The position numbers and the translations under genes were made by a program. Of a stretch of DNA of 64,000 bases, positions 7,051-53,888 are shown one piece after another; position 1 is the first letter of the stretch; the number at the start of each line of letters is the position of its first letter. The notes beneath the pieces were generated by a model. That model searched no databases. It was given only the letters and a program-made list of their open reading frames with translations, and was not told where the DNA came from. Source of the stretch: Candidatus Latescibacterota bacterium (GTDB taxonomy: Bacteria; Latescibacterota; UBA2968; UBA8231); contig CBDETK010000013.1 of assembly GCA_965242865.1 (NCBI GenBank), positions 5,376,001 through 5,440,000 on the forward strand, written 5' to 3'.

Positions 7051-7064
7051 GGTACGGCTCTCGT

Positions 7065-17630: not shown

Positions 17631-17663
17631 CGGCGGTTGCTGCAAGATAAAGGAGGTGTGCTT

Positions 17664-19711: not shown

Positions 19712-19799
19712 GGGATGTCTGGCCTTCGTCCAATTGAGCAATAGCTGTCGATTGTCGAGCCTAAGCATTACGTAAAAACAACGATAGAGCACTCCCATT

Positions 19800-19869
19800 G
19801 AGCCGAGTGCTCGTTTACGTGCTGCACACCGACGAGAAACTGGTGGCGCGGCAGCCGTGGAAGTTTTTG
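19800..19869 (+). repeat. Degenerate copy of the ackA 3' end (17537-17609)
   Basis: Translates SRVLVYVLHTDEKLVARQPWKFL vs AckA SRVQIHALRTDEELVVARQTWEFL. Confidence 0.8.
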
Positions 19870-19874
19870 AGCCT

Positions 19875-20831: not shown

Positions 20832-20888
20832 ACTGGATTCGCAACGCTACTGCACACGACCCCGGCTAGGTCGGAGAGGACGGATGAC

Positions 20889-24177: not shown

Positions 24178-24270
24178 GCCGCGCCGCTTGTCTATCAGAG
24201 ATCGCGCTCAACTCCTATCTTTAAGCACCCGGCAATCCGGCCGGCCGCGTGCGATTTGCCCAACGAAGCC

Positions 24271-27135
24271 ATGCAAAAGAAAACTCCGAGTCGCCTCAGT
24301 GCTCGCCAGCAACGGGCCTTGCTGGTGGTGGTGGCCTTGGGCGTCTTTATGGTCGCCGATACGCTCTATTTGCTGACCAATCGGCTGGCCGACGCCCTCG
24401 ATTTTGCCTATTTCGCGGTCACCGCCATCTCGCTGCCCAAGTTTTACCAAGGCATGGTGCTGTCGCATACGGCCGTCGGGCTGGTGCTGGTGGTGGTGGC
24501 ACTGGGCTTTGTGGCTTGGCATTTACCGGCCGTTTGGCGCAAGAGCCGCAAGCGGGCCATCTACACGGGCATCGCCACCCTGACGCTGGGCGTCGTACTG
24601 GCCGTCAGCGGGCTGTTCATCCTCAGCGCGGCGAGCAACCGCGGCAACCCGGTGGCCTATTGGAGCCACGTGGTCGCGGCGGTTTTAGTCCCCCTCTTTT
24701 ACTTGGCGCACCGCCGCCTCTCCCTGTGGAAGCCGGCCGCGCGGACTTATCGCGTCGTGCCGGCCGCGGTGGTCGGGCTGCTCGCGCTCGCCGTGGTGCT
24801 CCACGGGTTGACCTATCGCGGCGAGCAGTACACGCCGGCGGCCGAGCAGGCTTTTGCCGCGGGCAAACACACCGGCCCGGGCGCCAAGGCGCGGCAGGTG
24901 GCCGACTACGCGCCAGCCGGCTTTATCCCCGCCAATTTCGTCCCGGCCGAAAGCCCCTTTTTCCCGGCCGCGACGACGACCACCACCGGCGACTTCTTGC
25001 CCTCGCGGATCATCACGCGCGGCGACCTTGCTCAGCCGGAGCAACTCGCCGGCGACCTCGACGACTATGGCTTTGTGGTCAACGCGCCCATTGGCTCGGA
25101 GACGTGCGCTCGCTGTCACGCGGCCATCGTCGAACAGTGGGCGACGTCCGCGCACCGCTTTGCCTCGTTCAACAACCCCTTCTACGAGGCCACGATCAAC
25201 CACTTGCGCCGCAACTCGACCGACAGCAATGCCGAGGTCGCGGCCCATATCGCCTATTACAAGGGCTTGGCGGGCGAGGAGGGCAAAGTCAAGTCCAAGT
25301 GGTGTTCGGGTTGCCACGATCCAGCGTTGATGCTGGCGGGCAAAATGACCGAAGAAATCGACCGCGCCTCCCCCCAAGCCCAAGCTGGCCTGACCTGCCT
25401 AAGCTGCCACGCCATCGACGCCATTCACGACCGGACCGGCAACGGCAACTACAACATCGCCGACGAGCAGGAAGATCCCTATCTGTTCGCCGAGGCCAAA
25501 GAAGGCGCGGGCCGTTTCTTGCACGACACCGCCCTGAAGGCGCGGCCCATCGTCCACAAGAAGCAGATGCTCAAGCCCTTCTTCCGCACCTCTGAGTTTT
25601 GCGCCACCTGCCACAAGGTCAGCCTCGACGCGCGCGTCAATGGCTACCGCTGGCTGCGCGGCCAAAACGAATACGACAACTGGCACGACAGCGGCGTGGC
25701 GCTCAACGCTTCAAGAACCTTCTACCTGCCGGCGGTCGAGCGAGTCTGCCAAGACTGCCACATGCCGCTGGAGGAAGCGGGCGCCGGCGACGTGTCGGCG
25801 CGGGATGGGTACGTCAAGTCGCACCGCTTTTTGGCGGTCAATACGGCCCTGCCTTACCTCCGCGGCGACCGGGAAACCATCGCGCGGATCGAGGAATTTC
25901 TGCAAGACGAAAAACTCAGCGTCGATGTGTTCGCGCTGCACCGCCAAGGCGCGGCGCACTACGCGCTGGACAAGAGCCAGCCCGCGTTGGTGCCCGGGGG
26001 TGAGTACGCATTCGACGTGGTGGTGCGCAACAAGGGCGTCGGGCACACCTTCCCGGGCGGGACCAACGATTCCAACGAGGGCTGGCTAGAGGTCTCGGTG
26101 GTGGGAGACGATGGCGCGGTGATCGCGTTGAGCGGGGCGGTGCAAGACGACGGGCACGTCGATCCAGCCGCGCACTTTTACAAGGCACTGATGGTCGATG
26201 CCAGCGGACGAGCCATTCACCGGCGCAACGCTCAAGACATTGTCACGGCCGTGTACGTCCGCACCATTGGCCCGGGCGCGGCCGATGTGGCCCACTACAG
26301 TTTTCGGGTGCCGGCCGACTACGCCGGACGCAAGCTGACGCTGCGAGCGCGGCTGTTGTGGCGCAAGTTCGACCGGGCTTATACGGAATTTGCCTTCAAC
26401 AGCAACCGCGCCGGGTTCGGCCGCTTCGACCAAGTGCCGGACTTGCCGGTAACCGAGATCGCCCGCAGCGAGGTGGAGCTGGCGGTGGGGGGGGCGTCCG
26501 CGCCCGGGGCGGCTGTTGCGGCGGACTGGACGCGCTTCAACGACTATGGCATTGGCTTGCTGCTCCAAGACGACACCCAAGGTGCGGCGCGAGCCTTTGC
26601 CACGGTGGAACAGCTCGCGCCCGAGCGGTTGGATGGCTGCCGCAACTTGGCGAGGGTTGCCGTGCGCGATGGCCACTTGGAGCGAGCCTACGAGCATTTG
26701 CAGGACTGCGAGGCGTTGGCGAGCGGCGACGGGCAGACGGCTTGGGTCTGGGGCGTGGTGTTGCAAGAGGACGGCCGCTACGAAGCCGCGGCGCAGGCGT
26801 ATCGCCGGGTGTTGCGCGACTTTCCCGCGGATCGGGCGGCGTGGCGCAACTTGGGCCGGGTGCTCTATCTCGATGGCCGCTACGAGGAGGCTTTGGAGGC
26901 GCTCAACCGCGTGCTGGCCATTGACCCGGAAGACCGCGTCGCGCACTACCACCAGATGCTTTCGCTGCGCGCCCTCGGCCGCGAGGACGAGGCCCTCGTG
27001 GCCGAGCAGGCGTACCAGTACTACCAGATCGACGAGTCAGCGCAAGAACTGACGCGCCGCTACCGGCTAGCACACCCACACGACAACCGCGAGGCCCTCA
27101 AAATCCACGTTCATCCGCTGGGGGAAGGGGGTTAG
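24271..27135 (+). CDS. Membrane-anchored multiheme (5 CxxCH) cytochrome c with C-terminal TPR repeats
   Basis: About 5 N-terminal TM segments; CARCH, CSGCH, CLSCH, CATCH, CQDCH; GHTFPGG; TPR helices. Confidence 0.88.
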   Translation: MQKKTPSRLSARQQRALLVVVALGVFMVADTLYLLTNRLADALDFAYFAVTAISLPKFYQGMVLSHTAVGLVLVVVALGFVAWHLPAVWRKSRKRAIYTGIATLTLGVVLAVSGLFILSAASNRGNPVAYWSHVVAAVLVPLFYLAHRRLSLWKPAARTYRVVPAAVVGLLALAVVLHGLTYRGEQYTPAAEQAFAAGKHTGPGAKARQVADYAPAGFIPANFVPAESPFFPAATTTTTGDFLPSRIITRGDLAQPEQLAGDLDDYGFVVNAPIGSETCARCHAAIVEQWATSAHRFASFNNPFYEATINHLRRNSTDSNAEVAAHIAYYKGLAGEEGKVKSKWCSGCHDPALMLAGKMTEEIDRASPQAQAGLTCLSCHAIDAIHDRTGNGNYNIADEQEDPYLFAEAKEGAGRFLHDTALKARPIVHKKQMLKPFFRTSEFCATCHKVSLDARVNGYRWLRGQNEYDNWHDSGVALNASRTFYLPAVERVCQDCHMPLEEAGAGDVSARDGYVKSHRFLAVNTALPYLRGDRETIARIEEFLQDEKLSVDVFALHRQGAAHYALDKSQPALVPGGEYAFDVVVRNKGVGHTFPGGTNDSNEGWLEVSVVGDDGAVIALSGAVQDDGHVDPAAHFYKALMVDASGRAIHRRNAQDIVTAVYVRTIGPGAADVAHYSFRVPADYAGRKLTLRARLLWRKFDRAYTEFAFNSNRAGFGRFDQVPDLPVTEIARSEVELAVGGASAPGAAVAADWTRFNDYGIGLLLQDDTQGAARAFATVEQLAPERLDGCRNLARVAVRDGHLERAYEHLQDCEALASGDGQTAWVWGVVLQEDGRYEAAAQAYRRVLRDFPADRAAWRNLGRVLYLDGRYEEALEALNRVLAIDPEDRVAHYHQMLSLRALGREDEALVAEQAYQYYQIDESAQELTRRYRLAHPHDNREALKIHVHPLGEGG

Positions 27136-27739: not shown

Positions 27740-29521
27740 TTGCTAAGGTCGTATTCTCGTAGTTTTTCGCTGACATTTTTTCGCGTGATCGGCGCGTTGC
27801 TGTGGATGGCCTGCGGCCCGGAAGAGCCTTCAGAACCAGCGCCGACGCCCGAGTACGCCAAAGCACCGGCGGCCGACTACGCGGTCGGGCGCGGGCCGCC
27901 TGCGGCCCCGGCCGTGCGCTTCGTCGATGTGACGCGAGAGGCCGGTCTCGAATTTGAGCACGAGACCGGGGCGCGCGGCGACAAGTGGATGCCCGAAACC
28001 ATGGGCAGCGGTTGCGCGCTCTTTGACTACGATGGCGACGGCTGGCTCGACGTGCTCTTGGTCAACAGCCAAGGCTGGGGCGGCGAAAAGACCCCGGGCA
28101 AGCTCTATCGCAACCTCGGCAACGGCACCTTTGCCGACGCAACGGCCGGCGCGGGTCTAGACTTTTCAGTCTATGGCATGGGCGCGACGATTGCTGATTA
28201 CGACGCCGATGGCGACCCGGACATTTACCTGACGGCCTTGGGGCCGAACTTGCTGTTGCGCAACGACGCAGGTCGCTTTGTCGATGTGGCGCGAGAAGCA
28301 GGCGTGGCTGGTGTGCGCTGGCGGGACGACGCCGGTCACGAGAATCCCGAGTGGTCCACGGGCGCGGCTTGGGTCGATGTGGATGGCGACGGCTGGCTGG
28401 ATTTGTTGGTCGCCAACTACGTGCGCTGGTCGATCAGCACCGACATCTATACCTCGCTCGACGGCCGAGAAAAATCCTACGCCACCCCCCAGCAGTACCC
28501 CGGCTCAACGCCGCGGCTCTATCGGAATCTGGGCGGGGGCCGCTTCCGGGAGATAACCCAAGAAGCCGGCCTGCTGTTGCCCGAGGGCAAGTCCATGGGC
28601 GTGGCCATGACCGATTTTGAAGACGACGGCCGCATCGACTTGGTCGTCACCAACGACACCCAGCCCAATTTCCTATTGCACAACCTAGGCGGAGGCCGCT
28701 TTGCGGAGCGGGGGTTGGCCGCGGGCATCGGCTACGACGAGACCGGCCGGGCGCGCGCGGGCATGGGCGTCGATATTGCCTCGGTGGCCAACGACGGCGT
28801 GCTCTCCATTGCCATTGGCAACTTCAGCCGCGAGGCGCTCTCGCTCTATAGCCAAGCTGGCCGCGAGGTCTTCGTCGATGCGGCCGGCCGAGCGCGGCTG
28901 ATGCAGGCGACCCTGCGGCCGCTGACCTTTGGGCTGCGCTTTTTCGACTACGATCTCGACGGGTATCAGGATCTGATCTTGGCCAATGGGCACATCGAGC
29001 CGGAGATCAACTCGACGCAGAAGGAGATCGAGTACCAGCAGGTCCCGCAGTTGTTTTGGAACGACGGCGACGGGCGAATGGTCGAGGTGTCCGAGCAGAC
29101 CGGCGGACCGTTCCGCAAGCCGCTGGTGGCGCGCGGGCTGGCGGTCGGCGATATCGACGCGGACCGCGACTTGGATGTGCTGCTGACGACCAATGGCGGT
29201 CCGGCCTATCTACTCCGCAACGAAGGGCCGACCGGCCGCGCGGTGGCACTCAACCTGACGGGCAAGGCACCCAACCGAGACGCCATCGGCGCCAAGGTGA
29301 CCGCGCAGGTGGGCGAGCAGGCGCAGGTGTTCATGGTGCGCACGGGGTCTTCCTATCTGAGCCACAGCCCTACTACCCTGACCGTGGGCTTGGGCGAGGC
29401 CGAGCAGATCGACCGCTTGGAGATTCGCTGGCCCGATGGGACGGTGGAATCCCTCGAACAACTAGCGGCTGGGACGCGCTACGAAATCGCGCAGGGCGAG
29501 GGCATTGTGGAGACGCGGTAA
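27740..29521 (+). CDS. CRTAC1-family FG-GAP/ASPIC-UnbV protein, probable lipoprotein (start may be ~27785-27806)
   Basis: Multiple DxDxDG loops, FVDVT, RGLAVGDID, AIGAKV, GSSYLS, IRWPDG. Confidence 0.9.
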   Translation: MLRSYSRSFSLTFFRVIGALLWMACGPEEPSEPAPTPEYAKAPAADYAVGRGPPAAPAVRFVDVTREAGLEFEHETGARGDKWMPETMGSGCALFDYDGDGWLDVLLVNSQGWGGEKTPGKLYRNLGNGTFADATAGAGLDFSVYGMGATIADYDADGDPDIYLTALGPNLLLRNDAGRFVDVAREAGVAGVRWRDDAGHENPEWSTGAAWVDVDGDGWLDLLVANYVRWSISTDIYTSLDGREKSYATPQQYPGSTPRLYRNLGGGRFREITQEAGLLLPEGKSMGVAMTDFEDDGRIDLVVTNDTQPNFLLHNLGGGRFAERGLAAGIGYDETGRARAGMGVDIASVANDGVLSIAIGNFSREALSLYSQAGREVFVDAAGRARLMQATLRPLTFGLRFFDYDLDGYQDLILANGHIEPEINSTQKEIEYQQVPQLFWNDGDGRMVEVSEQTGGPFRKPLVARGLAVGDIDADRDLDVLLTTNGGPAYLLRNEGPTGRAVALNLTGKAPNRDAIGAKVTAQVGEQAQVFMVRTGSSYLSHSPTTLTVGLGEAEQIDRLEIRWPDGTVESLEQLAAGTRYEIAQGEGIVETR

Positions 29522-33269: not shown

Positions 33270-34469
33270 ATGTTGTTGTACGCCTTTATGGAAAGGTGCC
33301 TCGTGGTCATCCCCCGTTTTGCCCAAAACAGTGTGCTCGCGGCGCTGGCGCAGTTCCCGGCCGTCGCGTTGGTCGGCCCGCGGCAGTGCGGCAAGACGAC
33401 CTTGGTCCGCATGCTCGACCTGTTGCCCGCGCCCGTTTTTTTCGACTTAGAGGATCCGCGGCACCGGCTGATCTTGGAAGACCCCTTGCGGGCGTTGCAG
33501 GCTGGCGAACTCGTCGTCATTGATGAAGCGCAGCGCATGCCGGAGTTGTTTCCCGTTTTGCGGGTGCTCATCGACCAGAACCGTCGCCCTGGGCAATTCC
33601 TCCTGCTCGGTTCGGCCACGCCCGACCTGCGTCGGCAGAGTGCGGAAAGTCTGGCTGGCCGGTTGCTGACCCTAGAGCTGACGCCGTTCACCGCCGCAGA
33701 GGTCGTCCCCGACCGCTGCTCGTTGGAAGGGCTGTGGGAACGCGGGGGCTTTCCCCTGTCGCTGCTAGCCGCCACGAGCGAGCAGAGCGTTTTGTGGCGT
33801 CAGCAGTATGTGCGCGACATAACCGAGCGCGATTTGCGGCTTTTGGGGTTTGATCTGCCGCCGGCGAGAATGTATCGCTTCCTGCAAATGCTGGCCCACA
33901 ACCACGGCCAACGCTGGAATGCCAGCCAACTGGCGCGCAGTCTCGAAATCGGCGCCACGACCGCCGGGCGCTATCTCGATGTCATCCAGCAAACCTATCT
34001 CGTGCGGTGTCTGCCGCCCTACCTGCGGAACTTGGGAAAACGCCTTACGAAATCCCCCAAGGTGTACATCCGCGACTCGGGCATCCTCCATTCTCTGCTC
34101 GCCCTGCAAAGCCGCGAACAGGTGCTTGGACATCCCGTAGCCGGTTATAGCTGGGAGGGTTTTGTCGTGGAGCAGTTTGCCGCGGCGCTGCCGCTTGGTT
34201 GGGAGTTGGCCTTTTGGCGCACGGCGGCCGGCGCGGAAATCGACTTGGTCCTGCTGCACGGCGGGCACCCGGTCATCGCGGCCGAAATGAAGATGAATAC
34301 CACTGACCCCCGCTCCGGTAGAGGGTTTTACGAAGGATGTAAGGATCTGGCCCCGCGTGAAAAGTGGGTCGTCTATCCCGGCGATGAGACCTTGGCCTTG
34401 CCCAATGGGGTGCTGGCCCTGCCGTTGGCCGAGGCCATAGAGCGGTTTGGGTCCATGGCTCAGCCGTGA
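33270..34469 (+). CDS. AAA_14 ATPase with DUF4143 domain (start uncertain)
   Basis: GPRQCGKT, IDEAQ, LLGSA, ESLAGR, GGFP, KSPKVY..DSG, EIDL. Confidence 0.88.
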   Translation: MLLYAFMERCLVVIPRFAQNSVLAALAQFPAVALVGPRQCGKTTLVRMLDLLPAPVFFDLEDPRHRLILEDPLRALQAGELVVIDEAQRMPELFPVLRVLIDQNRRPGQFLLLGSATPDLRRQSAESLAGRLLTLELTPFTAAEVVPDRCSLEGLWERGGFPLSLLAATSEQSVLWRQQYVRDITERDLRLLGFDLPPARMYRFLQMLAHNHGQRWNASQLARSLEIGATTAGRYLDVIQQTYLVRCLPPYLRNLGKRLTKSPKVYIRDSGILHSLLALQSREQVLGHPVAGYSWEGFVVEQFAAALPLGWELAFWRTAAGAEIDLVLLHGGHPVIAAEMKMNTTDPRSGRGFYEGCKDLAPREKWVVYPGDETLALPNGVLALPLAEAIERFGSMAQP

Positions 34470-37090
34470 CTGGACGACTGATCGCTCGCCTCGCCGGTGC
34501 CGCCCTGCTGCTCGGCGGCTTGGCCTTCAATCCGCTGGCCCTAGCGCATTTTTTTGGCGAGCCGCCGCTGGGCACTGAGGGTATCATCGCCCTCCAGATC
34601 GCCGCGATTGTGAGCGGCGGTTGGCTCGTTTGGCGCGGCCCTCGGCTGCCGCTGGTTCCCATCGCGCTCCTCGCGGTTGCCTTGGGCGCGCTGGCCGTTG
34701 TCGGGGGATACGGCACGGCCCGCTCCCTGCAAAAGGCGCGCGACCGCAACCGGCTCTTGGCCGCTATCGACCGCAGCGAACAAGTGCAGCAGCACCTCAG
34801 CGGCGAGGCCCTGCCGCTGCTCGCCTTGGGGATCTACCAAGGCCAACTGCCGGCGGCCCCGGCTCGCACGCTTTTTGCCGCTACGGTGGTGGTCGCGGAC
34901 GTGGTGCCGAACACAGAGGCGACCCAAGTCGTCCCGGCCTTGGGCATTAAACGCCAGCACTGGAAGATCGCTCCCGCCGAGCCGGTTTCCGCCGCCGACA
35001 TCGCGCTGTGGGAGCCGCTTTGGGCCGCGCTGGAGGGGTGCGATTATGCGGCCTTCCACATTGAGACCGGGCAGTTCCTCGACGCGGCGGGCGCGATCTA
35101 CCAAGCCCGCTTGCGCTTTGACGCCTCGGCGCAGACCAAGGACGGGGAGCGGGCGCAAATTCGGGCTGGGCTGAGGCTAGCGTGGCAGCAACAGGACGAT
35201 GCCGCTTGGCGGATTCAGCGCTGGGAGACCGAATCGCTGGAGACGCTCACGCGGCCGCACGCCCTGTTTGCCGGAGTTCTCGACGAGGCCCTCCCCGCTC
35301 AGGCTAGGGTTTCGCGCCACGCGGAACTGGTGCTCCAGTCGTTTCGCGACTCCGCGTTCGTCGCGCCGCACCGCTATTTCACGCGCCAAGCCTTTGATCG
35401 CCATCCCGGCATCAGCGTCGTAGATATCGACGCCGATGGGTACGACGACCTGTACCTTGCCGTGCGCCGAGGTAGGAACATGCTGTTGCACAATGGCGGT
35501 GACGGCGCGTTCACCGAGCGGGCGGCCCACTACGGCCTCGATGTGGAGCACCACACGGCCGCGGCGCTCTTCGCCGACTTTGACAACGATGGCGACCCGG
35601 ATGTCTTCCTCGGCCGCACGCTCGCGCCCAGCCGCTACTTGGTCAATGAGTGCGGGCGTTTTGTTCCCCGCGACTTGGGTGCTGACGTATTGCCGTCCCT
35701 CGTAGCCTCGATCTCGGCAGCCGATTACGACCGCGACGGGCTGCTCGACGGGTACTTCTCCACCTATGCCGCGCGGATGGTGCTCGACGCAGTAACCGCT
35801 GCTCCTCGCGCCGCGCTATTGGCCGACTTCCTGCCGGCGGACCGCGCTCGGACGCTCTACGACCTGAGCCGCGACCGCATCGGCCAGCTCATCCGCGACG
35901 CGCCCGGGCCGCCCAATGTCCTGCTGCACAACCTCGGCAACGGACGGTTCGCGCCCACAGCCGCCGTGTGGCGCAATACCTTGCAGGCGACTTGGGCCGA
36001 TTACGACCGCGACGGCGACCCGGATCTCTACCTCGCCAACGACTTTGCCGCCAACAACCTGTTTCGCAACGACGGCGGGGTCTTGGTGGATGTCACTGCG
36101 GCGAGCAAGGCCGCGGACCCGGGCTTTGGCATGGGCGCGAGTTGGGCCGATTACGACGGCGATGGCCGCCAAGACCTGTACGTGACCAACATGCACAGCA
36201 ACGCCGGGCGCCGCATCACGGCCGCGGCGGGGCCGGCGGGCGCGGCTTTTGCCCGGTTGGCTCGGGGCAGCTCCCTGTTGCGGAACAGCCGGGCGGGCTT
36301 TGTCCGGGTTGCGGATTCGCCGGTGGAGGACAGCGGCTGGGGTTGGGGCGGCCAATTTTTGGACTTTGACAACGACGGCGATCTCGACATCTACGCCCCG
36401 AGCGGGTACTACACCCCGCCGGCCGCCGTGGCCCTGCCCGAGGATACCTGAAGCCTGTTTTGGCGCACGGTCGTGCGCCATGGTCGGACGGACGGGGCGT
36501 ACAACGTAGGAGCGCGGCTCGACGCGGGGGCCTCGCTCAGCGGCTACCAGCGCAACCGGCTATTCCTCAATGTGGAAGGCCGCGCCTTCCTCGATGTGTC
36601 GGGCTTGTCCGCGGCGGATTCGCCGGCCGATGGCCGCGCCTTTGCCACCTTGGACTTCGACCGCGATGGCCGCATTGACTTGGCCATCGTCAATGCCAAC
36701 GAGCCGCTCTGCGAGCTGTTTGCCAATCGCAGCAAGGCGGGGCACTTCCTCGCGGTGCGCTTTGTCGGGGGCAATGACCGCGCCGCGCCCACGAGCGCGT
36801 GGAGTGTGCGCGATGGCTATGGCGTGCAAGTGGAAGTGGAGGTCGACGGACGGACGTTACTGCGCGAGCACCGCGCCGGCGAGGGCTTTTCGGCCCAGAA
36901 CAGCGCGACCCTGATCGTCGGTCTAGGTGATCATCCGCAAGCGGACGCCCTGCGCGTACATTGGCCTTCGGGGCGAGTGCAGCGCGCAACCGACGTGGCG
37001 GCCGGGACGCTATTGACCGCGTACGAAAATCCCCGGCACTCGCCTACGGGGGCGGCGTTTGTAGTGGGGCCGTATCGCGGCACACCGTAA
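34466..37090 (+). CDS. CRTAC1/ASPIC-UnbV FG-GAP protein read through an in-frame UGA (36449-36451), probable selenoprotein
   Basis: ORFs 34466..36451 and 36473..37090 share one frame with no other stop; the junction reads EDT-UGA-SLFWRTVV; the FG-GAP repeats continue into the ASPIC-UnbV tail. Confidence 0.78.
36461..36480 (+). promoter_or_regulatory. Candidate SECIS hairpin
   Basis: Perfect 8-bp stem UGGCGCAC-GGUC-GUGCGCCA, 9 nt after the UGA; same GGUC loop as the fdhF SECIS. Confidence 0.7.
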
Positions 37091-37187
37091 GGGCGATTGC
37101 GGGGTAGTTGCGCGTTGGCTGCATCGGTAGGATATTGACAAGACGTAACGACGGTGCTAATGGCATCATGAGACAAGATATAGAATA
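36907..37187 (+). repeat. Direct repeat, left copy (gene 3' end plus promoter); right copy at 46663-46946
   Basis: GACCCTGATCGTCGG...GGATATTGACA...TAGAATA shared between the copies. Confidence 0.9.
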
Positions 37188-37199
37188 CTTAGAGGAACC

Positions 37200-40100
37200 G
37201 TGAACGACAGAGATCTGAAATTTACAGATGTTCAAGCACTCGCTGGTAAGGATAGTCTAGCCTCTTTTTTCGCTACCCTTGGTTATGACACAGAGATGCG
37301 CCTGCCGCTGACCTCCACTGCCTTGGGCATCACAGCCGAACAGCTTCAGCGCCAGATAAAAAGTATAGAGCAACTCGCCGTTCAGGAGGATGGAGCGGAG
37401 CCACTATACGTTTATCTCGTAGAGTTGACCTCCGTCACGATTGCGGCTACGCAGGGTCTGGCTCGTGCCCTCAAAAACAGGGAGGGGAACTACGTTTTGG
37501 TGCTCACTGACGACTACGAAAGGCTGGACTTCGTCCTGCTCGAAAGGACTCTCCCCCAATCGAATGGTTCAATCCTCTCTCCACGCCAAGTATCCGTCAG
37601 GCCGCGCATCCTTACGGTCCATCGGCGCAACCCGTCGCGGGTCCATGTCCATTTGCGGGTTCTCAGAAGGTTCACCTACACCGAGGCGGACTCAGATGCT
37701 CAGTACGATAAGCTGCTGTCGGCTTATACTGTCGCCGAATGGTCCGAGCCTTTGTTCAACAATCGCGCCCTATTTTCTGACTATTATCTGAACGAACGCC
37801 TCCCCGAACTACAAGCATGGCAGGAGCATCCTGAGACGGTATATCACCGCTTTCAAGCACTATTCGCCGACTTCCGCGGTCACTTGTCTGATGATAGCCA
37901 AGCTACAATGCGGAATCTCCTAGTACCTGCTTTTAAGGCTCTTGGGTTCCGCGCTGTAAAGGACCAGCAGCGTTATCTCCTCTATACAGCCGATGCGCCC
38001 GACAAGCCTATCGCCTTTTGCTTGGCCTACAGTTGGAATCGCTACCTAGACGGACGCGATGAGACCCGCGACACAGATTCCCCCGAAGAGAATCCGGGCG
38101 CACGTGTCGTCTCTATCCTCGACTCGGGCGAGGCTCCTTGGGCTGTTGTGACCAATGGCAAGCTCTGGCGTCTCTACTCAGCGCAGGCGCACTCTCGCGC
38201 AACCAACTACTATGAGATTGACCTTGAAGAGACTCTAGCCATGGCCGATCCCAACAAAGCCTTCCGCTATTTTTATTTATTTTTCCGCGCCGCCGCCTTT
38301 GTGCCCGAAGAAGACGTGAGCGATGACCAAACTCGTCAAATTTGTTTCTTAGATAAACTTGTTGAAGAAAGCGAGACCTATGCCAAGGGCCTCGGAGATC
38401 GTCTGAAAGAGCGAATATTCGAGCAGGTATTCCCACACTTTGCCAAAGGCTTCATAGAGTACCTTGAACAACAGCCGGGTATTGTAGCTCCTCATCAGAA
38501 AACGCTGTTTCGCGTTGTACAGCAGTTGTCCCTTAAACAAGAGCCCAACGAGGAATTCCGCCGTCAGGTGTTCGAGGGGACGTTGACCCTGCTTTACCGC
38601 CTACTGTTCTTGCTGTACGCAGAGGCTCGTGGTTTGCTGCCGGTTAGAGAAGAACGAGGATACTTTGAACATAGCCTCACTAAGCTAAAGGAGGAAATCA
38701 AAGAAAAAGCAGGAAACATCCTCAACGAAGCTCCTACGAAACTCAGCTCAGTCTATCGCACCGACACCACTGACCTGTACGACAGACTGCTGACGCTATT
38801 TGCGGCCATTGACCAAGGGAGTCGCGACCTGAACATTCCTCTTTACAATGGCGGCCTTTTCATTACCGAGCCACAGGCCAAGGACAACTCTCTAGAGGCC
38901 ACAACCGCCCGTTTTTTACGGCAGCAAAAAATCCCCGACCGCTATTTGGCTATGGGGTTGGATTTGCTGGCACGAGATGTGGACGACAAGCGACAAGACC
39001 TTGTTTTTATTGACTATAAGTCGCTAGGGGTGCGTCAACTCGGTTCCATATACGAGGGGCTTCTGGAGTTCAAAATTCGCATCGCTCCTGAAAAAATGGC
39101 TGTGGTCAAGGGCAAGCGAACCGAAGAGGTCGTTCCCTACAAAGAGGCCAAGAAAGTTTTGACCAAAGGTAGAGGCCGCAACGCCGAGGAGCGCGTGTAT
39201 CACGCCGGCGAGATGTATCTTGAAAACGACCGCCGGGAGCGCAAAGCGTCCGGATCGTACTATACTCCCGATCATATCGTGAAGTACATCGTCGAGCATG
39301 CCGTAGGGCCGGTGCTTGAGGAGAAGTTTGAGAAACTGCGTCCTATATTTCGGAAGGCAGGGCAACAATACCGCCAGAAAGTGCAGCAAGCCAAGATCCT
39401 CAAAAGGCAGGGCTTGGAACCAGATGACCCGAACAAGATCGCCATTACTTTTCGTCCATTAGTGGACGATCTATTTGATCTGCGGATTCTCGACCCGGCG
39501 ATGGGTTCAGGGCACTTTCTGGTAGAAGCGGTGGACTTTATCTGCGACCGCATCCTTGGAGAGCAAGAGGGTTTCCTACAATCGTTCCCGTGGAACCCCG
39601 TGACGGCCTTCCTCGATGATACCCGTCGGGCCATCAGCACGGAAATGGAACGGCAGAAAATTTCGGTGGATACAGGCCGTCTAACCGACGTCAACCTGCT
39701 GAAACGCTACGTACTCAAGCGTTGCGTCTATGGTGTTGATTTGAACCCTATGGCCGTGGAGTTGGCCAAGGTGTCGCTGTGGCTGGACTGTTTCACCATT
39801 GGAGCACCGCTTTCTTTTTTAGACCATCACCTCAAGTGTGGCAATTCGCTCATTGGCACCACGGCACAGCAAGTGCAAGCCGAACTACCTAATCAAACCG
39901 ACCTGTTCGGCGGCCCTTTCCAAGGACTTATCGCTGCTACTGCCACGATTGAGCAACTGCGGCGCATTCCCGACGCCACGGCGTCGGAAGTCGAGGCCAG
40001 CCATACCCTTTTTGCAGACTTTGAGCAGGATCAAGCCCCGTACAAGGCTGCACTCGACATCTGGGTCAGCCGACACTTTGGAAACAGACTCGCCGAGGAA

Positions 40101-41639
40101 TACTTGGCCTTCTCAGGGGCTAATCTAGTCAAGCAGATACGCCCTGGAGGGAGCAGTCCTCCGCTGCCTAATAAATACCAAGAGACTATCAAGAAGGCCG
40201 CTGAAATAGGCATAGAGAAACGCTTCTTTCATTGGGATTTGGAGTTCCCGGAGGCATTTGTCGATTTGCGAGGCGGCCGGTGGAAGGCAAAGAGTGAACA
40301 GGGATTTGACGCGGTGGTGGGGAATCCGCCATATGATGTGCTTGGTAGAGAAATGATAGATAAAGAAACACAAAGGGAACTAGATTTCTACGATAGAATA
40401 CCTCTCTATACTCCTGCTTTGATTGGAGCGAAAAATATCTACAAATTATTCATCTGCCGTGGAATAGCTACCACTTGCAAGTCTGGAGTTATATCTTTTA
40501 TAGTGCCAATGTCTCTTTTGGGGGATAGACAGGCTACTGAGATCCGAAGGTTGTTTTTAGAAAAGATGAACTTGATTGCCATTGAGGTTTTTCCACAGAA
40601 AGATAACCCTAGCAGGCGTGTTTTCTATGAAGCTAAGCTATCAACCACGATTTTTGTATTGTGTAATAAATTTAGTGATAGTGAATTCTTAGTTCGAACA
40701 CATTCTGCACACAGTATCGTTGACAATACTCAAGATACATTGCAGGTCACATCGAAACAAATTCATCGCATGGATCCAAAATTTCTCTCGATTAAATCCT
40801 GTACGAAACGTGATTTTAAGATAGTTGATCGGTTATTCAGTTCTAAGACGACCACAATGGAAGAAAAAGTTCAACTTATGGAAGGAGAGGTTCATTCTGC
40901 TAGCCATAAAGAATTTCTCTCAGATAGTAAACATGTCGGTCCACTTGTTCTAAGAGGTGCATCCATATCTCTATATGCATTGAGAGAAGCTTCTCAGGGT
41001 GAAATTCTATATCTTGACATAGAGAAATATTTACAAGGAAGACGAGCGAGCTCTAAAGCATATCATCATCGTCAAAGGCGAATCGGATTCCAACGGTCAG
41101 CACCGCAGAATAATTTTCGCAGATTAATTGCTGCTCCAATACCAATAGACAATTTTTGCTTTGAGTCAATCAAGTATGTGACTACAGAAACAAGTCATAT
41201 GGATCTCAATTTGTTTATGGCTTTAATGAATTCAAAAATACTAGATTGGTATTTTCGACTGAGTAGTACGAATGCCTCTATTAACGAATATCAATTCAAT
41301 CAGTTACCAATTCCTAGTATGTCAAAAGACGAAATATATATTGATTGGTGTCCATTACTCGATACAGGCAAATGGCCTGATCTCTCAGGTCTGCTTTCAT
41401 CAGCCTGTAAGAAACCTGGTATTATGCCTAAGAATGTGGGAGAGGCAATCGCAGAAATGTGTCGTCGAATTCAGGAAATAGAAGCTCGTCGTGTGCTCAA
41501 AAATCGATCTGAACGATCGAGCCTATCACCTGAGAGCCAGCCTATTCAGGACACGATTGACAAGGTACTGTTCCGTTGCTACGGCTTGTCAGACGACGAC
41601 GCCCAGTACATTGAAGAACGTCTGCAGGAAATGTTGTGA
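37200..41639 (+). CDS. Type IIG / Eco57I-like restriction-modification enzyme (N6-adenine MTase)
   Basis: VTNGKLWRLY, LGSIYEGLLE, GSYYTP, LDPAMGSGHFL, YGVDLN, FHWDLEFPE, VVGNPPY. Confidence 0.92.
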   Translation: MNDRDLKFTDVQALAGKDSLASFFATLGYDTEMRLPLTSTALGITAEQLQRQIKSIEQLAVQEDGAEPLYVYLVELTSVTIAATQGLARALKNREGNYVLVLTDDYERLDFVLLERTLPQSNGSILSPRQVSVRPRILTVHRRNPSRVHVHLRVLRRFTYTEADSDAQYDKLLSAYTVAEWSEPLFNNRALFSDYYLNERLPELQAWQEHPETVYHRFQALFADFRGHLSDDSQATMRNLLVPAFKALGFRAVKDQQRYLLYTADAPDKPIAFCLAYSWNRYLDGRDETRDTDSPEENPGARVVSILDSGEAPWAVVTNGKLWRLYSAQAHSRATNYYEIDLEETLAMADPNKAFRYFYLFFRAAAFVPEEDVSDDQTRQICFLDKLVEESETYAKGLGDRLKERIFEQVFPHFAKGFIEYLEQQPGIVAPHQKTLFRVVQQLSLKQEPNEEFRRQVFEGTLTLLYRLLFLLYAEARGLLPVREERGYFEHSLTKLKEEIKEKAGNILNEAPTKLSSVYRTDTTDLYDRLLTLFAAIDQGSRDLNIPLYNGGLFITEPQAKDNSLEATTARFLRQQKIPDRYLAMGLDLLARDVDDKRQDLVFIDYKSLGVRQLGSIYEGLLEFKIRIAPEKMAVVKGKRTEEVVPYKEAKKVLTKGRGRNAEERVYHAGEMYLENDRRERKASGSYYTPDHIVKYIVEHAVGPVLEEKFEKLRPIFRKAGQQYRQKVQQAKILKRQGLEPDDPNKIAITFRPLVDDLFDLRILDPAMGSGHFLVEAVDFICDRILGEQEGFLQSFPWNPVTAFLDDTRRAISTEMERQKISVDTGRLTDVNLLKRYVLKRCVYGVDLNPMAVELAKVSLWLDCFTIGAPLSFLDHHLKCGNSLIGTTAQQVQAELPNQTDLFGGPFQGLIAATATIEQLRRIPDATASEVEASHTLFADFEQDQAPYKAALDIWVSRHFGNRLAEEYLAFSGANLVKQIRPGGSSPPLPNKYQETIKKAAEIGIEKRFFHWDLEFPEAFVDLRGGRWKAKSEQGFDAVVGNPPYDVLGREMIDKETQRELDFYDRIPLYTPALIGAKNIYKLFICRGIATTCKSGVISFIVPMSLLGDRQATEIRRLFLEKMNLIAIEVFPQKDNPSRRVFYEAKLSTTIFVLCNKFSDSEFLVRTHSAHSIVDNTQDTLQVTSKQIHRMDPKFLSIKSCTKRDFKIVDRLFSSKTTTMEEKVQLMEGEVHSASHKEFLSDSKHVGPLVLRGASISLYALREASQGEILYLDIEKYLQGRRASSKAYHHRQRRIGFQRSAPQNNFRRLIAAPIPIDNFCFESIKYVTTETSHMDLNLFMALMNSKILDWYFRLSSTNASINEYQFNQLPIPSMSKDEIYIDWCPLLDTGKWPDLSGLLSSACKKPGIMPKNVGEAIAEMCRRIQEIEARRVLKNRSERSSLSPESQPIQDTIDKVLFRCYGLSDDDAQYIEERLQEML

Positions 41640-41672
41640 ATGGTTCTAGAAGGACACATATAGGAGTTTGCA

Positions 41673-42563
41673 ATGAGAAAAACAGAACCAGTACCAGTAC
41701 CATCTGCAATCACGAAGACTTATCCTCAAAGAGGACCACTACAGCAATATAGATTTGCTACGGCAACAGCATTTCGCTGTTTCCGATGTGGCGCGACTAA
41801 GAAATCCAAGCTAATTACCATCTATCGAGATTGGATGAGAAAGCTATGCAATGGTTGCTATGGTCGTCTTCTATCCCTGTACGAGATTAAAGCTGGAACA
41901 GATTGTACTGACGAGAAAGCGGAACAGATAGCCGTACTGCTGATCTCTTTAGCCCGTGTCAATGACCGCCGGAATGCGGAATACCGTTTACTCGCTTCAG
42001 AGAGCCGTGCAAAATATCTATCCTCAGAATCGCTACGGTTTCTCGCAACATCGGAATTCATAGCATCAAAGTTGTGTTCAGAACCAGAACTTGAGTGGTC
42101 TCCTGCTGTTATCGGTATCTGTAAGGCGATTGAGATAGAGATTGTAAATCGTCTTATCCTACCTCTCGCTCAAAGAGTTGCTTCCGAAGATCTCTCAAAC
42201 GATACTAAAGATAAAGATGTAGGGCGAGTAGCAGCGTTTTGTGTCGATCCAAAGAGGAATCCACTAGAATTGGGTGCTATCTCTCACTTTTTGCAGACTA
42301 CAATTCACAGTCAACGACGGCGGGAAAGTAGTATTTTGATGGGTGTATTCTTACAGCTTGCATCTGATTGGGCTGGCTCCCAATGGATATTGAATCCAAA
42401 TGGTATATGCCAAGCTCTGTCAAAACTCAGGATAGACTTCAGAAATAAATCTGCACATATAGATGAAATGAGTGAAATACATTATCGTCAATGCAGGGAA
42501 TTAGTCATGGGAGTTGATGGTGTTCTTTGGAGACTCATACAGTCAGTTGAGAAACATAGATGA
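41673..42563 (+). CDS. Hypothetical protein: Zn-finger N-terminus plus HEPN-like C-terminus
   Basis: CFRC...CNGC; KAIEIEI; RNKSAH (Rx4H); AT-rich. Confidence 0.65.
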   Translation: MRKTEPVPVPSAITKTYPQRGPLQQYRFATATAFRCFRCGATKKSKLITIYRDWMRKLCNGCYGRLLSLYEIKAGTDCTDEKAEQIAVLLISLARVNDRRNAEYRLLASESRAKYLSSESLRFLATSEFIASKLCSEPELEWSPAVIGICKAIEIEIVNRLILPLAQRVASEDLSNDTKDKDVGRVAAFCVDPKRNPLELGAISHFLQTTIHSQRRRESSILMGVFLQLASDWAGSQWILNPNGICQALSKLRIDFRNKSAHIDEMSEIHYRQCRELVMGVDGVLWRLIQSVEKHR

Positions 42564-42682
42564 TTAGAGTAAAGGAACTTACAGAAACCACACAGGATGT
42601 GAAATACTTAGAAGCGATCTTAAATCATTTAGGATGGCTATATATACAGCATAGATGACATGATCCGTGAAGAGGATTGTAA

Positions 42683-43018
42683 TTGAATCTACCTAACGCA
42701 CAAAATGTCCGCATTAAAAAAGAGAAAATTACAGATTATCTGCTTTCAACAAGTAGCCTCGATGGTCGAAGCAAAGCCGAATTCTTCTTCGGATTCGGCT
42801 TTTGTATAGAGGAGTGGCAGATTTTTTTGGACGCATTGCGAATTCATGGAACGAGCCACGGAGTCGTCGAAATTAAAGAAACTAACTACGGCACGAAGTA
42901 TATTATAGATGGATCACTTGAGACCCCCGATGGACGCGACCCATACGTGCGGACTATCTGGCAGATTGATAGGGAAAGTGACTCTCCTAGGTTTATTACG
43001 GCGTATCCTACTGATTAG
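42683..43018 (+). CDS. DUF6883 domain protein, copy 1
   Basis: KITDYLLS...GRSKAEFF, YGTKY, TPDGR, TIWQID, PRFITAYP. Confidence 0.82.
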   Translation: MNLPNAQNVRIKKEKITDYLLSTSSLDGRSKAEFFFGFGFCIEEWQIFLDALRIHGTSHGVVEIKETNYGTKYIIDGSLETPDGRDPYVRTIWQIDRESDSPRFITAYPTD

Positions 43019-43027
43019 GAGGCAAAT

Positions 43028-46000
43028 ATGTTCAAGGAATTAGACACCATTGTTCTTACAACCGAAATTCCGCTCGATCGTATCTGGGATATTCCACCTG
43101 GTAGCCCGCTGCTTGGGAACAGCAGTTCAGGAGAAGGTCTGAAAGCCGGCGATGTCGGCACGATTGTGTATATACAGGGTGCAGGGGAAGCCTTTGAGGT
43201 AGAGTTCTTGAAGCCAGATGGCTACACAGTCGCTATTGCCACGGTCTTACCATCGCAGGCTCGCCCGGCCACCAAAAAGGACCGCGCCAACTACCGCTTT
43301 GGGGAGAAGTCGCCCGCACATATCCCCTATGTTATAGACAACGAAAATTATCGCATGGCTGATGTGCTCAATGGGATTTTGGCAGGGCACGACAGCAAAT
43401 CACTGGACATCGCCACCGCCTATTTCAATGTACAAAGCTTTACGCTGCTCCAAGAAGGCTTGCAAGGACTTGGTAGCTTTCGCCTGCTGCTAGGCGATGA
43501 ACCCGAGGATGGAGAGTCGGTGGGGCTGCGTCCCCGGGCAGCGCTTAGGTTAATCCATGAACTGAACGCCGCTTCCTTTGACGAAGCTACCCTCAGAGCC
43601 GTTGAAGACCTCATCGCCTTTTTGCGCCGCAACTCAGTGGAGGTTCGTGCCTACCAGAACGGATTCCTCCACGCCAAGACCTACCTCTTCTACGGCGACT
43701 TACCCGTAGGCGGCGCAGACCGCTTTCAGCCTGTCGCGGCCATTGTTGGCTCTAGCAACTTTACTGGCCCTGGTCTAACCACGAATAAAGAACTCAACCT
43801 TTCCCACAAAACAGTGCTTGCCGAAGAAGAGGTCGCTCGGATAGACCCACCACCTGTTGACGGGCGATTGGAAATGGAACTTCGCCAACAGCTGGCCAGC
43901 GGAGTGGGTGCTCAGGCTATCGCCGAACTAGATAGATGGTTCCGAGCACACTGGGAACAGTCCCGCGATTTCAAAGACGACCTCATCGAACTCTTGGATG
44001 CTTCCAAGTTTGGCGAGAAGGAGTACACGCCCTATCAGGTGTATTTGAAGGCACTTTTCGAGTATTTCAAAGACGACCTCGACTCCGAGATGCAGGACCA
44101 TACGCGCTCTGCTGTCGAGTTGTCCGAGTTTCAAGAAGACGCAGTGAAAAAGGCCCGCAAAATTCTGACTCGCTACGATGGCGTGTTAATCGGCGATTCT
44201 GTGGGATTGGGCAAGACGTGGATCGGCAAGAAGCTGTTAGAGGACTACGCTTACTACCAGCGCCAGAAGGCACTCGTAATCTGCCCCGCATCCCTGCGTC
44301 AGATGTGGACCGATGAACTGCAAGACGCTACCATCTCAGCCGCAATCATTTCCCAAGAAGAACTCGGGCGGGCCAATTTTGACACCCATCGCAACGCTGA
44401 TGCAGAGGTGGTGCTGATCGACGAATCTCACAATTTTCGCAATCGCAGTACTCGGCGATACGAAAACCTCGAACGCATCCTTAGTGCCAATGGCAGTAAT
44501 GGTCGGGTCGATGCTCGCAAGAAACTGATCATGCTCACCGCTACTCCCATCAACAACAACATCTTCGACCTATACAACCAGATAACCCTGTTCACAGGCG
44601 GGGACCGTAGCTATTTCGCCAGCGCGGGTATTGGCGATCTACACAGGTTCTTCCTCCGCGCACGTCAAAATGCAGCCGATCACCACACCGGAACCGCGCT
44701 CTTCAACCTGTTAGAGGAGGTCGTGGTTCGGCGCACTAGGGCTTTCATTCGCAAGGCGTATCCCAAAGCTACCATCCAAGGCAAGGCTCTACAATGGCCT
44801 GAGCGCAGGCTCAAGACAATTCGCTACAATCTCGAGTCCACGTACGATGGAATTTATGAGAAAACTGTTGAATCCATAGGTGATCTGAGCCTTGCTCCCT
44901 ATCAACTGGAGACTTATAAGAAGGCGGGCGTTAAGAGAGATAAGTTTGAACAAGGCCGGGAAGAAGCACTGGCCGGCATTTTCAGAAGTCGCTATCTGAA
45001 GCGATTCGAGTCGAGTGTGGAAGCCTTCCGCATTAGCGCAAGACGCTCCTTGGAATTTACCAGAACTTTTGAACGCTATCTTTTGGCAGGCAGGCTGTTG
45101 GACAGTACATCATTCCGCAAAGCTATGCGCTTTCTCGACTACGAGAATGAAGAAGAGGACGCCAGCACTCCTTCCAGTATAGCCAATGACTTGGACGCTA
45201 CTGAGGAGGCGCGGTCTGCACTGGAAAGCCTGTCGGTTTTGGACCCTGAGCAGTACGATCTCAGCCGCCTACGCGAATCGCTACAGCGCGATGTAGAGGC
45301 GCTGACCGAGGTTTGGCACCTGACTAGCAATATCAAACCAGAGCAGGACGCCAAACTGGCGACTCTCAAGACGATCCTCTCTCAAGACTTGAAAGACAAG
45401 AAAGTCATCGTCTTCTCGTACTACCGGGATACAGCCCGATATATCCACCGGGAACTAACTGAAGAACGCGGTGAGAAATTTAGGGAGGAAGCCGGGGATC
45501 CAGTCATTCGTTGCGTGGATGGCGGTGTTTCGCCGCAAGACCGCAGACGATTTATTGAGGCGTTCGCTCCGCGTTCAAACGGCAGAGAGGAACTCGTCGG
45601 CTCTGAGAAAGAAGTGGATATACTCATATCTACGGATGTCTTATCTGAGGGCCAAAACCTCCAAGACTGTGGCATACTGGTCAATTACGACCTGCATTGG
45701 AATCCGACGCGCATGGTACAGCGTGCCGGCCGTATTGACCGCATAGGCTCGGAATTTCCGCAGCTTTGGGTTTACAATATGTTCCCAGAAGCGGGGCTGG
45801 AACGGCTCTTGGGACTAGTAGAGAGCCTAAGTCAAAAAATTGACGATATTGATAAGGCGGGATTTCTGGATGCCTCGGTACTGGGCGAAACGGTCCATCC
45901 TCGGAACTTCAACACCTTACGCCGCATTATGGAAGAGGATGGCAGTGTCGTCGAAGAGCAGGAACAGTTCGCGGAGTTGGCGAGCAACGAGTTCTTGTTA

Positions 46001-46648: not shown

Positions 46649-46662
46649 TGTTTTTTTAGTGA

Positions 46663-46946
46663 GACCCTGATCGTCGGCTTGGGCGCACATCCGCAAGCGG
46701 ACGCCCTGCGCGTACATTGGCCTTCGGGGCGAACGCAACGCACAACCGACGTGGCGGCCGGGACGCTATTGACCGCGTACGAAAACCCAAGGCACTCGCC
46801 TACGGGCGCGGCGTTTGTGGTGGGGCCGTATCGCGCTGGCGAGCCGTAAGGGTGATTGCGTAGCGACCTCATTGGTCGGATATTGACAGGACGTAACGAT
46901 GGGCTTATGAACCGCGACCAGCATCATGCGATCTAGATGTAGAATA
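46663..46946 (+). repeat. Direct repeat, right copy: orphan 3' end of the ASPIC-UnbV gene plus promoter
   Basis: Still encodes TLIVGLGAHPQADALRVHWPSG...VVGPYRAGEP*. Confidence 0.9.
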
Positions 46947-46969
46947 TACTGGATGTCGGAGATTCACTT

Positions 46970-47323
46970 GTGAAGGCCAGAGAATTGAGGCTACCCAACG
47001 CGCAATATGCCCGAGTTGAACGAGAAAAAGTTACAGGCTACCTGCTTTCGACAACTAGTCCCGATGGTCGAAGTAAGGCCGAATTCTTTTTTAGATTCGG
47101 CTTTCGAGTAGATCAGTGGCAGAATTTAGCGGACGCATTACGGGTTCAGGGAACAAGCCATGAAGTTGTCGAGATTGTAGAAACCGTTTTCGGCCCGCGC
47201 TACCATGTAGATGGGATTATTGAGACGCCTGATGGACGTAAGCCGAGAGTAAGAACGGTTTGGCAGGTAGACATAGGGAGCAACAGCCCCAGGCTCATCA
47301 CAGCACATCCGCTCGGAGGATAA
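46970..47323 (+). CDS. DUF6883 domain protein, copy 2
   Basis: Paralog of 42683-43018 (LPNAQ, GRSKAEFF, TPDGR, PRLITAHP). Confidence 0.82.
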   Translation: MKARELRLPNAQYARVEREKVTGYLLSTTSPDGRSKAEFFFRFGFRVDQWQNLADALRVQGTSHEVVEIVETVFGPRYHVDGIIETPDGRKPRVRTVWQVDIGSNSPRLITAHPLGG

Positions 47324-53815: not shown

Positions 53816-53888
53816 AGTAGTCCCTTTTTGGGCGTAAAATCGGGCATTAAGGCCATAATTTACGCCGAATAGAGACGCTATCAAGGCG

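Follow-up and report, generated by a model that had tools for sequence, protein, structure and literature searches.

A conserved in-frame UGA marks a probable new selenoprotein family built on a CRTAC1-like β-propeller

We analyzed a 64,000-nucleotide stretch of the genome of a Candidatus Latescibacterota bacterium (GenBank assembly GCA_965242865.1, contig CBDETK010000013.1, positions 5,376,001 to 5,440,000 of the forward strand; hereafter the window), centering on a gene at 34466–37090 of the plus strand that contains one in-frame UGA. Translation Table 11 yields two open reading frames (ORFs) here, 34466–36451 (661 amino acids) and 36473–37090 (205 amino acids), and gene callers give a 661-residue protein. 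With TGA translated as selenocysteine (Sec, U), the same frame encodes 874 residues followed by the terminal stop. The sole internal stop is the TGA at 36449–36451, which would specify residue U662 within ..ALPEDT-U-SLFWRTVV.. (motif D-T-U-S-L-F-W-R). Pfam matches above cut-offs comprise four stretches of FG-GAP_3 (PF13517) and one FG-GAP match (PF01839) before the stop and UnbV_ASPIC (PF07593) after it, and a paralogue at 27740–29521 carries both kinds of domain in one chain. No purine-rich, Shine–Dalgarno-like stretch was visible by eye before the GTG at 36473. An earlier interpretation made from the letters of this DNA (the sequence-only reading) had drawn attention to the single internal stop, the lack of a clear ribosome-binding site for the downstream ORF and the domain order shared with the uninterrupted paralogue, and all three observations hold.

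The UGA is followed by a hairpin of the selenocysteine insertion sequence (SECIS) type at 36461–36480 (plus strand), in which an 8-bp stem (U36461–C36468 paired with G36473–A36480) closes a GGUC loop (36469–36472) separated from the UGA by 17 nt. The isolated hairpin folds at −14.3 kcal/mol and is contained in the minimum-energy fold of its 42-nt and 49-nt contexts. With its 4-nt loop, it agrees in every respect with a published model of the bacterial SECIS, which specifies a loop of 3–9 nt with G at the first two positions, a stem of 4–16 bp, a spacing of 16–37 nt and a minimum free energy of at most −7.5 kcal/mol (PMC13188914). The window also holds a comparator, the fdhF gene at 4330–7272 (minus strand; ..NCSRA-U-HAPTVAGL.., TGA at 5970–5968), with the hairpin GGUUGCC-GGUCU-GGCAGCC at 5956–5938 (minus strand), the loop of which lies 18 nt after the UGA. 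Both elements are intragenic hairpins just 3′ of a UGA, both have loops that begin GGUC at nearly the same spacing, and both conform to the consensus model; they differ in stem sequence, in loop length (5 nt in fdhF) and in their unrelated protein contexts. The loops and spacings that the sequence-only reading had assigned to these two hairpins were confirmed, for the element studied here by folding as well as by sequence. A genome-wide scan (12 Mb counting both strands) found 41 sites at which a TGA is followed at 14–21 nt by a GGUC-loop hairpin with a stem of 6 bp or more. Only six of them have at least 40 open codons on each side, and the two longest frames are fdhF and the gene at 34466–37090; the combination of UGA and GGUC hairpin thus exceeds chance.

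The UGA is conserved throughout the relatives of this gene. In a protein search with residues 520–874, we examined 120 listed proteins; among the matches listed, many are proteins of 661–723 amino acids that are 73–98% identical to the query and cover only 40% of the searched region, and, under a strict scripted criterion, 36 of the 120 end at query residue 661 with the final residues ..[ED]D[TS]. Database orthologues have lengths of 661–690 amino acids and share this final residue. Six-frame searches in which stops were read through, covering 61 relatives and then 168 genomes of the phylum, reported one TGA in every match that spans the column (34 of 37 rows and 51 of 57 rows, respectively), and the rows that lack a stop fall short of the column or represent distant paralogues with a gap there (G116, G117). 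Of the 53 phylum loci read as DNA (L002 and L011–L062), 51 have TGA at the column and none has TAA or TAG. These 51 loci fall into four subfamilies with mutual identities of 36–57%. The window's own group (..EDT-U-SLFWRTVVRHG..) spans 29 species of one genus, the 28 further species carrying the same TGA at 71–94% protein identity. Loci L041 and L042 (..ADL-U-SFFWRTVV..) are 56–57% identical, and a widespread group found in several genera and two families (..SLKDT-U-SLFWRHVLAS..) is 36–43% identical. The source genome itself contains a second paralogue, L002 (G000:C8:117523-119385; ..DRDL-U-SFFWRQVV.., TGA at 2095–2097 of the locus), which runs to 1334 codons and includes a fused AhpC-TSA/Redoxin domain (WCPPC) and an extended TPR region; L040 carries the variant ..PDG-U-ACIWQAVV...

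Outside the phylum, one genome per species was scanned with an alignment of the region around the column; this gave 80 loci, 31 of which (L063–L093) were taken as in-family. The other 49 are more distant FG-GAP/ASPIC proteins that lack the motif and were not counted. Thirty of the 31 are readable and one is cut by a contig end. TGA occupies the column in 24 (26 genes), Glu (GAA or GAG) in four, Asn in one and Gly in one. According to their records, the loci with TGA are spread over Verrucomicrobiota, Planctomycetota, Acidobacteriota, Myxococcota, Gamma- and Deltaproteobacteria, Cytophagia and Gemmatimonadetes. In all, 77 interrupted genes were read as DNA and every one has TGA, in line with the homologues anticipated by the sequence-only reading, which had named TAA or TAG at this column as contrary evidence. 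The Gly codon of L093 (GGA) lies a single step away from each of TGA and GAA. Two planctomycete loci, L088 (TGA at 1013–1015 and 3627–3629) and L089 (3627–3629 and 6205–6207), each hold two tandem family members, and each member has its own TGA and hairpin and the motif U-S-C-x-W-R, with a Cys two residues after the Sec.

We also compared a full-length family profile with 1.84 billion representative proteins, one per 50%-identity cluster, and took the best 150. Among these, 105 end exactly before the U column (these are protein sequences, in which the stop codon itself is not read), and all 105 have Asp at position −2. Nine span the column, with Glu in four, Ser in four and Cys in one, and the remaining 36 comprise giant FG-GAP proteins and sequences with imprecise ends. 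The motif of the family reads D-x-U-S-x-x-W-R. The excess of representatives that end before the column over those that span it suggests Sec as the predominant residue at this position in a large, multi-phylum family. The sequence-only reading had looked to Cys homologues for support, and these exist in two clusters (P0008, ..IDL-C-SDFWR..; P0133, ..YDL-C-NEYWR..), both with an intact CxxC motif, but they are rare, and uninterrupted homologues mostly have Glu or Ser. Variable residues at the column had been named as grounds for a simple nonsense mutation, and the Glu and Ser forms could be counted in that direction; in our view the conservation of TGA across phyla outweighs them.

The hairpin is conserved along with the codon. 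In the main type, represented by 45 distinct sequences, pairing at the six core stem positions is 87–100% (about 96% of cells overall). None of 500 shuffles reached the observed pairing or the observed covariation score, and sliding the 3′ partner lowers the pairing to 19–65%. Compensated stem variants include C-G to A-U (L063), A-U to G-C (L065 and L074) and C-G to U-A (L079). In the ..SLFWRH.. group, the stem GGCGCCA/UGGCGUC closes a 5-nt loop, one member having GGCGUCA/UGACGUC instead. L002 forms GCGGCA/UGUCGC, and L090 forms GAGGCA/UGCCUC, in which AGG serves as the Arg codon and the 3′ arm specifies Pro in place of Arg. Third-codon-position entropy among the 27 genus loci drops to 0 at codons +4 to +8, which apart from the single-codon Trp are four-fold degenerate, compared with mostly about 0.2 to 1.65 elsewhere among the codons examined. 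The GGUC loop in addition requires a Thr or Ala codon with G as its third base followed by the Val codon GUC, a combination kept by most of the 45 sequences.

Purifying selection acts with equal strength on the two halves of the gene. In 348 pairs with dS > 0.05 from the 27 genus loci, the ratio of nonsynonymous to synonymous substitution rates (dN/dS) is 0.140 upstream of the UGA (500 codons, dS 0.452) and 0.128 downstream of it (212 codons, dS 0.467). Between the UGA and the earliest possible restart lie five codons that preserve S-L/F-F-W-R despite synonymous substitutions, with Leu encoded by CTG, CTC, CTT, CTA or TTG, Phe by TTT or TTC, and Ser by AGC or AGT (TCG in two planctomycete genes); they match the uninterrupted Glu, Ser and Cys forms position by position. 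This conservation at the amino-acid level speaks against reinitiation at the conserved Val codon.

Such reinitiation is the core of the best-surviving alternative, a conserved split gene in which translation stops at the UGA and resumes at the GTG at 36473 or nearby, the 661- and 205-residue fragments assemble, and the hairpin either couples termination to reinitiation or is a by-product of the coding sequence. In most loci a GTG, the conserved Val codon, does occur 21–24 nt beyond the UGA, gene callers break the gene in two throughout, and the stem can be explained in part by the codons for W-R-T-V-V-R and persists in some Glu forms. Against a split gene count the use of TGA in 77 of 77 genes, and never TAA or TAG, across subfamilies and phyla, and the conservation as amino acids, in register with uninterrupted homologues, of the codons between the UGA and the GTG. 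The missing Shine–Dalgarno-like stretch, the retention through synonymous sites of a GGUC loop that matches the fdhF SECIS loop of the same genome, and the presence of selA in 60 of 62 genomes with TGA forms also speak against it, and we regard a split gene as highly improbable.

The source genome is equipped to decode UGA as Sec: it encodes SelA (467 bits), a SelB wing domain, SelD (381 bits) and tRNA-SeC (found by aragorn). The selD match (G000:C13:4179924-4180847, minus strand) itself contains one in-frame TGA, and SelD of this genome is probably a selenoprotein too. A genome-wide reassignment of TGA to sense was set aside, as Table 11 gives ordinary ORFs across the window and the in-frame TGAs found are those of fdhF and selD. 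The sequence-only reading had expected UGA only in genomes competent for Sec. Within the phylum this holds, with selA in 131 of 168 genomes, in all 47 that carry the TGA form and with no TGA form in the 37 that lack selA; outside it, selA was found in 13 of 15 genomes holding TGA loci but not in the other two. Among the five genomes with Glu or Asn forms, four likewise have selA.

If a standard tRNA, such as that for Trp, Cys or Gly, decoded the UGA in programmed read-through independent of the Sec machinery, the full-length protein would be made without selenium, and our data show that the frame is read through rather than which residue is inserted; Gly (GGA in L093), Ser and Cys do occur at the column among relatives. 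Against this explanation stand the fit of the hairpin to the bacterial SECIS model and its resemblance to the fdhF element of the same genome, the full set of Sec machinery together with the frequency of selA among TGA-form genomes given above, and the difficulty of explaining, without an advantage specific to Sec, why a leaky stop should be kept in more than 100 clusters. We accord this explanation even less credence than the split gene. A defect restricted to the source genome (nonsense mutation, pseudogene or assembly error), of which a lone in-frame stop splitting a gene would be the usual signature, is refuted for practical purposes by the same TGA in 28 further species of the genus and many other lineages and by the downstream dN/dS of 0.128.

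Several observations weigh against a selenoprotein assignment or blunt the evidence for it. In a 71-nt context, the minimum-energy fold uses a different pairing, with a z-score of only −0.69. No Rfam model matched the window at gathering thresholds, a result that is uninformative given that the fdhF element was missed as well. The sequence encoding W-R-T/A-V-V-R is by nature partly self-complementary, and two of the four Glu-form loci (L067 and L073) retain a perfect GCGCAC-CAUG-GUGCGC hairpin after GAA, the stems of the other two being broken; for these two reasons the stem taken alone is weak evidence, although the hairpin of L067 and L073 may be a relic of a SECIS. The covarying hairpins sought by the sequence-only reading are seen more clearly between subfamilies, where different stems occupy the same place, but covariation within the main type is modest, with both-sided changes at two pairs (four cells). 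The association with selA within the phylum is weak support with little statistical power, because selA is common there and the genomes are related, and the two genomes outside the phylum in which selA was missed are metagenome-assembled, with completeness not established. The rarity of Cys homologues (two clusters) relative to Glu and Ser is unusual for a selenoprotein family. Two further points bear on function: the window protein lacks the thioredoxin-like domain of its sister subfamilies, so that any redox role is borrowed from them, and the 58 longest flanking frames at 24 loci of other phyla show no recurring Pfam partner and hence no clue to a substrate (neighboring CRTAC1-like paralogues at L064, L072, L088 and L089 are the exception). 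Taking both sides together, we consider it very likely that the UGA at 36449–36451 is a genuine Sec codon served by a SECIS and that the gene belongs to a new, large selenoprotein family. The original proposal of a selenoprotein in a CRTAC1/ASPIC-UnbV β-propeller is thus supported by the conserved UGA and the hairpin, and the family is missing from the catalogues consulted.

Structure prediction provides a framework for the 874-residue product. The AlphaFold2 model of the window protein (predicted local distance difference test (pLDDT) score 86.9, predicted template modeling score 0.85) begins with hydrophobic helices over residues ~1–85 (34466–34720, plus strand; helices 3–16, 23–30, 37–55 and 64 onwards), which have low pLDDT. 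We infer from these N-terminal helices that the protein may be anchored in the membrane. A long helix comes next, and then an α+β domain with long antiparallel strands (residues ~137–270; 34874–35275, plus strand; model m04ee4b175ef5), which has no Pfam match and is conserved in homologues (alignments A1 and A3). The predicted FG-GAP/VCBS β-propeller follows (residues ~315–780; 35408–36805, plus strand) and contains helical inserts, the third of which starts at U662. This helix, residues 662–672 (U-SLFWRTVVRH; codons 36449–36481, plus strand), is assigned by DSSP of the model in a block with pLDDT of 87–88, and the Sec is its first residue, or N-cap. The UnbV_ASPIC domain (PF07593, E 8.6e-17; residues 784–851; 36815–37018, plus strand) forms a β-sandwich, with model strands spanning 788–869. 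A model of a sister protein from the ..SLFWRH.. group (915 amino acids, pLDDT 82.0) places U550 in helix 549–559 and adds a C-terminal thioredoxin fold, so that in both predicted structures the Sec lies at a helix N-cap. Among solved structures, the sister model is matched best by murine CRTAC1 (9etn; Foldseek E 4e-25, TM-score 0.72 on the target) and next by thiol-disulfide oxidoreductases of the ResA/TlpA type.

Relationship to CRTAC1/ASPIC-UnbV proteins is evident from the Pfam content, from 9etn being the best sequence match of the family profile as well and from several homologues listed publicly as 'CRTAC1 family protein'. The Sec subfamily differs in its additional N-terminal anchor, α+β domain and D-x-U-S-x-x-W-R insert and, mostly, a C-terminal TlpA-like domain; the ordinary paralogue at 27740–29521 shows a gap precisely at the residues that follow U, the Sec-bearing insert. 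To our knowledge, neither a catalytic function nor a role for selenium has been described for CRTAC1 proteins, and we know of none for a β-propeller of this type.

Most Sec forms are fused to a C-terminal TlpA/ResA-like thioredoxin domain, which in sister forms is recognized as AhpC-TSA/Redoxin by Pfam and NCBIfam, with ResA/TlpA below the curated cut-off. It is present in L002, in L041–L060 and in 17 genes of other phyla. The window's subgroup is without it: by Pfam and alignment, the window protein ends after UnbV_ASPIC and lacks an AhpC-TSA/Redoxin domain with W-C-x-x-C, and the 27 genus loci likewise have only 209–234 residues after U. In alignment A3, W/Y-C-x-x-C is intact in all eight Sec or Cys forms that have the domain, compared with C-x-x-C in only five of 20 Glu or Asp forms; the other 15 have decayed variously, to SPAA, SPSS, NPAS and SASG among others. 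These counts come from related sequences and are not independent events. The members of the ..SLFWRH.. group for which a translation was read all have W/Y/H-C-x-x-C. In other phyla, 17 Sec genes contain ATWCxxC and nine show no such motif by pattern, six of which end 211–243 residues after U, as the window protein does. The variety of the decayed motifs suggests relaxed selection once Sec is gone, and we lean, with some reserve, toward a redox coupling between the Sec and the CxxC domain in the sister subfamilies. The redox selenoenzyme envisaged by the sequence-only reading gains support from this fusion, but for the window protein itself only by analogy, as it is without the domain.

On the selenoprotein reading, SelB and tRNA-Sec would decode the UGA with the help of the hairpin at 36461–36480 and give a single protein comprising an N-terminal membrane anchor, the α+β domain, a CRTAC1-like propeller and the UnbV_ASPIC β-sandwich, with Sec662 capping the inserted propeller helix. 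The Sec could then be the active-site nucleophile of an extracytoplasmic (envelope) enzyme, a role suggested by the CxxC that appears to serve the Sec site, by the helix N-cap position and by the invariant Asp at −2. The fused CxxC domain would reduce the Sec or recycle it after each turnover. The window's subgroup has no such domain, and its reductant would have to come from a separate protein encoded elsewhere.

The well-conserved Glu forms (D-L-E-S-N-L-W-R) keep alive an alternative to a redox cycle, in which the Sec may act in covalent catalysis and require reductive maintenance. In its fullest version, Sec would be the ancestral and predominant residue, serving as a covalent nucleophile paired with the Asp at −2 rather than as a redox center of the thioredoxin type; lineages that dispense with selenium would replace it with Glu (or Ser) rather than Cys, and the CxxC 'maintenance' domain would then decay. 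We hold this version to be unlikely, if well short of negligible.

One close functional analogy to the proposed selenoprotein is with extracytoplasmic thiol-disulfide selenoprotein families, with which it would share thiol-disulfide chemistry and, in the sister subfamilies, a TlpA/ResA-like CxxC domain. Those families carry their Sec inside the thioredoxin-fold motif (UxxC or UGC), whereas here the thioredoxin-like domain keeps Cys-x-x-Cys and the Sec would lie ~260 residues upstream in the β-propeller. The large envelope selenoprotein families reported in the accessible part of the deep-Sep paper (PMC12013277) are similar in being large envelope proteins, not previously linked to selenium, that were predicted from a conserved UGA and a SECIS-like hairpin. 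As far as that part shows, they are unrelated to the present family in fold and motif, and many of their homologues have Cys, which here is rare and replaced by Glu or Ser as the usual alternatives.

The family appears to be undescribed, although the recoding mechanism appears to be the ordinary bacterial one. A review of May 2026 lists 119 prokaryotic selenoprotein families and subfamilies in its Table 1 (PMC13188914); that table has no FG-GAP, VCBS, ASPIC/UnbV, CRTAC1 or propeller entry, and the text of the review mentions neither the words FG-GAP, VCBS, ASPIC, CRTAC1 or propeller nor PF13517, PF07593 or PF01839. The same words are missing from the accessible part of PMC12013277. NCBIfam release 20 has no model matching the window protein, and the listings and abstracts returned by full-text literature searches include no paper on an FG-GAP, ASPIC, CRTAC1, VCBS or β-propeller selenoprotein, although an entry in the supplementary tables of a selenoproteome study is possible. 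The sequence-only reading did not know this protein as an established selenoprotein, and the catalogue, NCBIfam and the literature searched agree. Homology screens that rely on Sec/Cys pairs may have missed the family because its usual selenium-free counterpart is Glu or Ser rather than Cys.

The 3′ end of the gene borders a region that looks like a variable island of defense genes (~37156–47233). The last 178 nt of the gene (36902–37079, plus strand) are repeated 9.76 kb downstream at 46658–46835 with 90% identity. Between the two copies lie an Eco57I/MmeI-like restriction-modification fusion (37200–41639), an ORF without a family match (41673–42563) and a DUF4926-PLD-SNF2 helicase (43028–46648). 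Three of four genus relatives compared match the parts at ~42.7–43.8 kb and 46.9–47.6 kb but not 37156–42680 or 43762–46935, and the fourth, L015, has no match beyond the end of the gene. No integrase was seen in the island. On the 5′ side, an AAA_14/DUF4143 ATPase gene (33270–34469, plus strand) overlaps the start of the UGA-containing gene by 4 nt, and a second gene of this kind lies at 52565–53884 (minus strand). Just upstream of the paralogue at 27740–29521, the region 24256–27135 (plus strand) encodes a 959-residue protein with multihaem cytochrome motifs (MtrC/MtrF-like, doubled CXXCH) and C-terminal TPR repeats. A cluster at 17637–21590 (plus strand), consisting of an AAA_15/AAA_21 ATPase, an ORF without a family match and a DUF7680 protein, looks like another defense-type module, and an IS4/IS5-type DDE transposase (2790–3776, minus strand) lies beside fdhF.

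Public annotation ends the genes of this family at ~660 residues, and the truncated forms, where named, are called 'VCBS repeat-containing protein'; many genomes would thus carry the same error. If confirmed, the assignment would add a large, multi-phylum family to the bacterial selenoproteome, with at least 105 clusters at 50% identity ending at the Sec column. It would place a selenoprotein of ~900 residues on a β-propeller and offer a first functional handle on the abundant bacterial CRTAC1/ASPIC-UnbV proteins, and the link between a Sec or Cys in the propeller and an intact CxxC in the fused TlpA-like domain constitutes a directly testable mechanism. Should the less probable covalent-nucleophile reading prove true, this would be the first selenium-dependent enzyme on a CRTAC1/integrin-like propeller, and searches based on Sec/Cys pairs would systematically miss families whose selenium-free forms carry a carboxylate.

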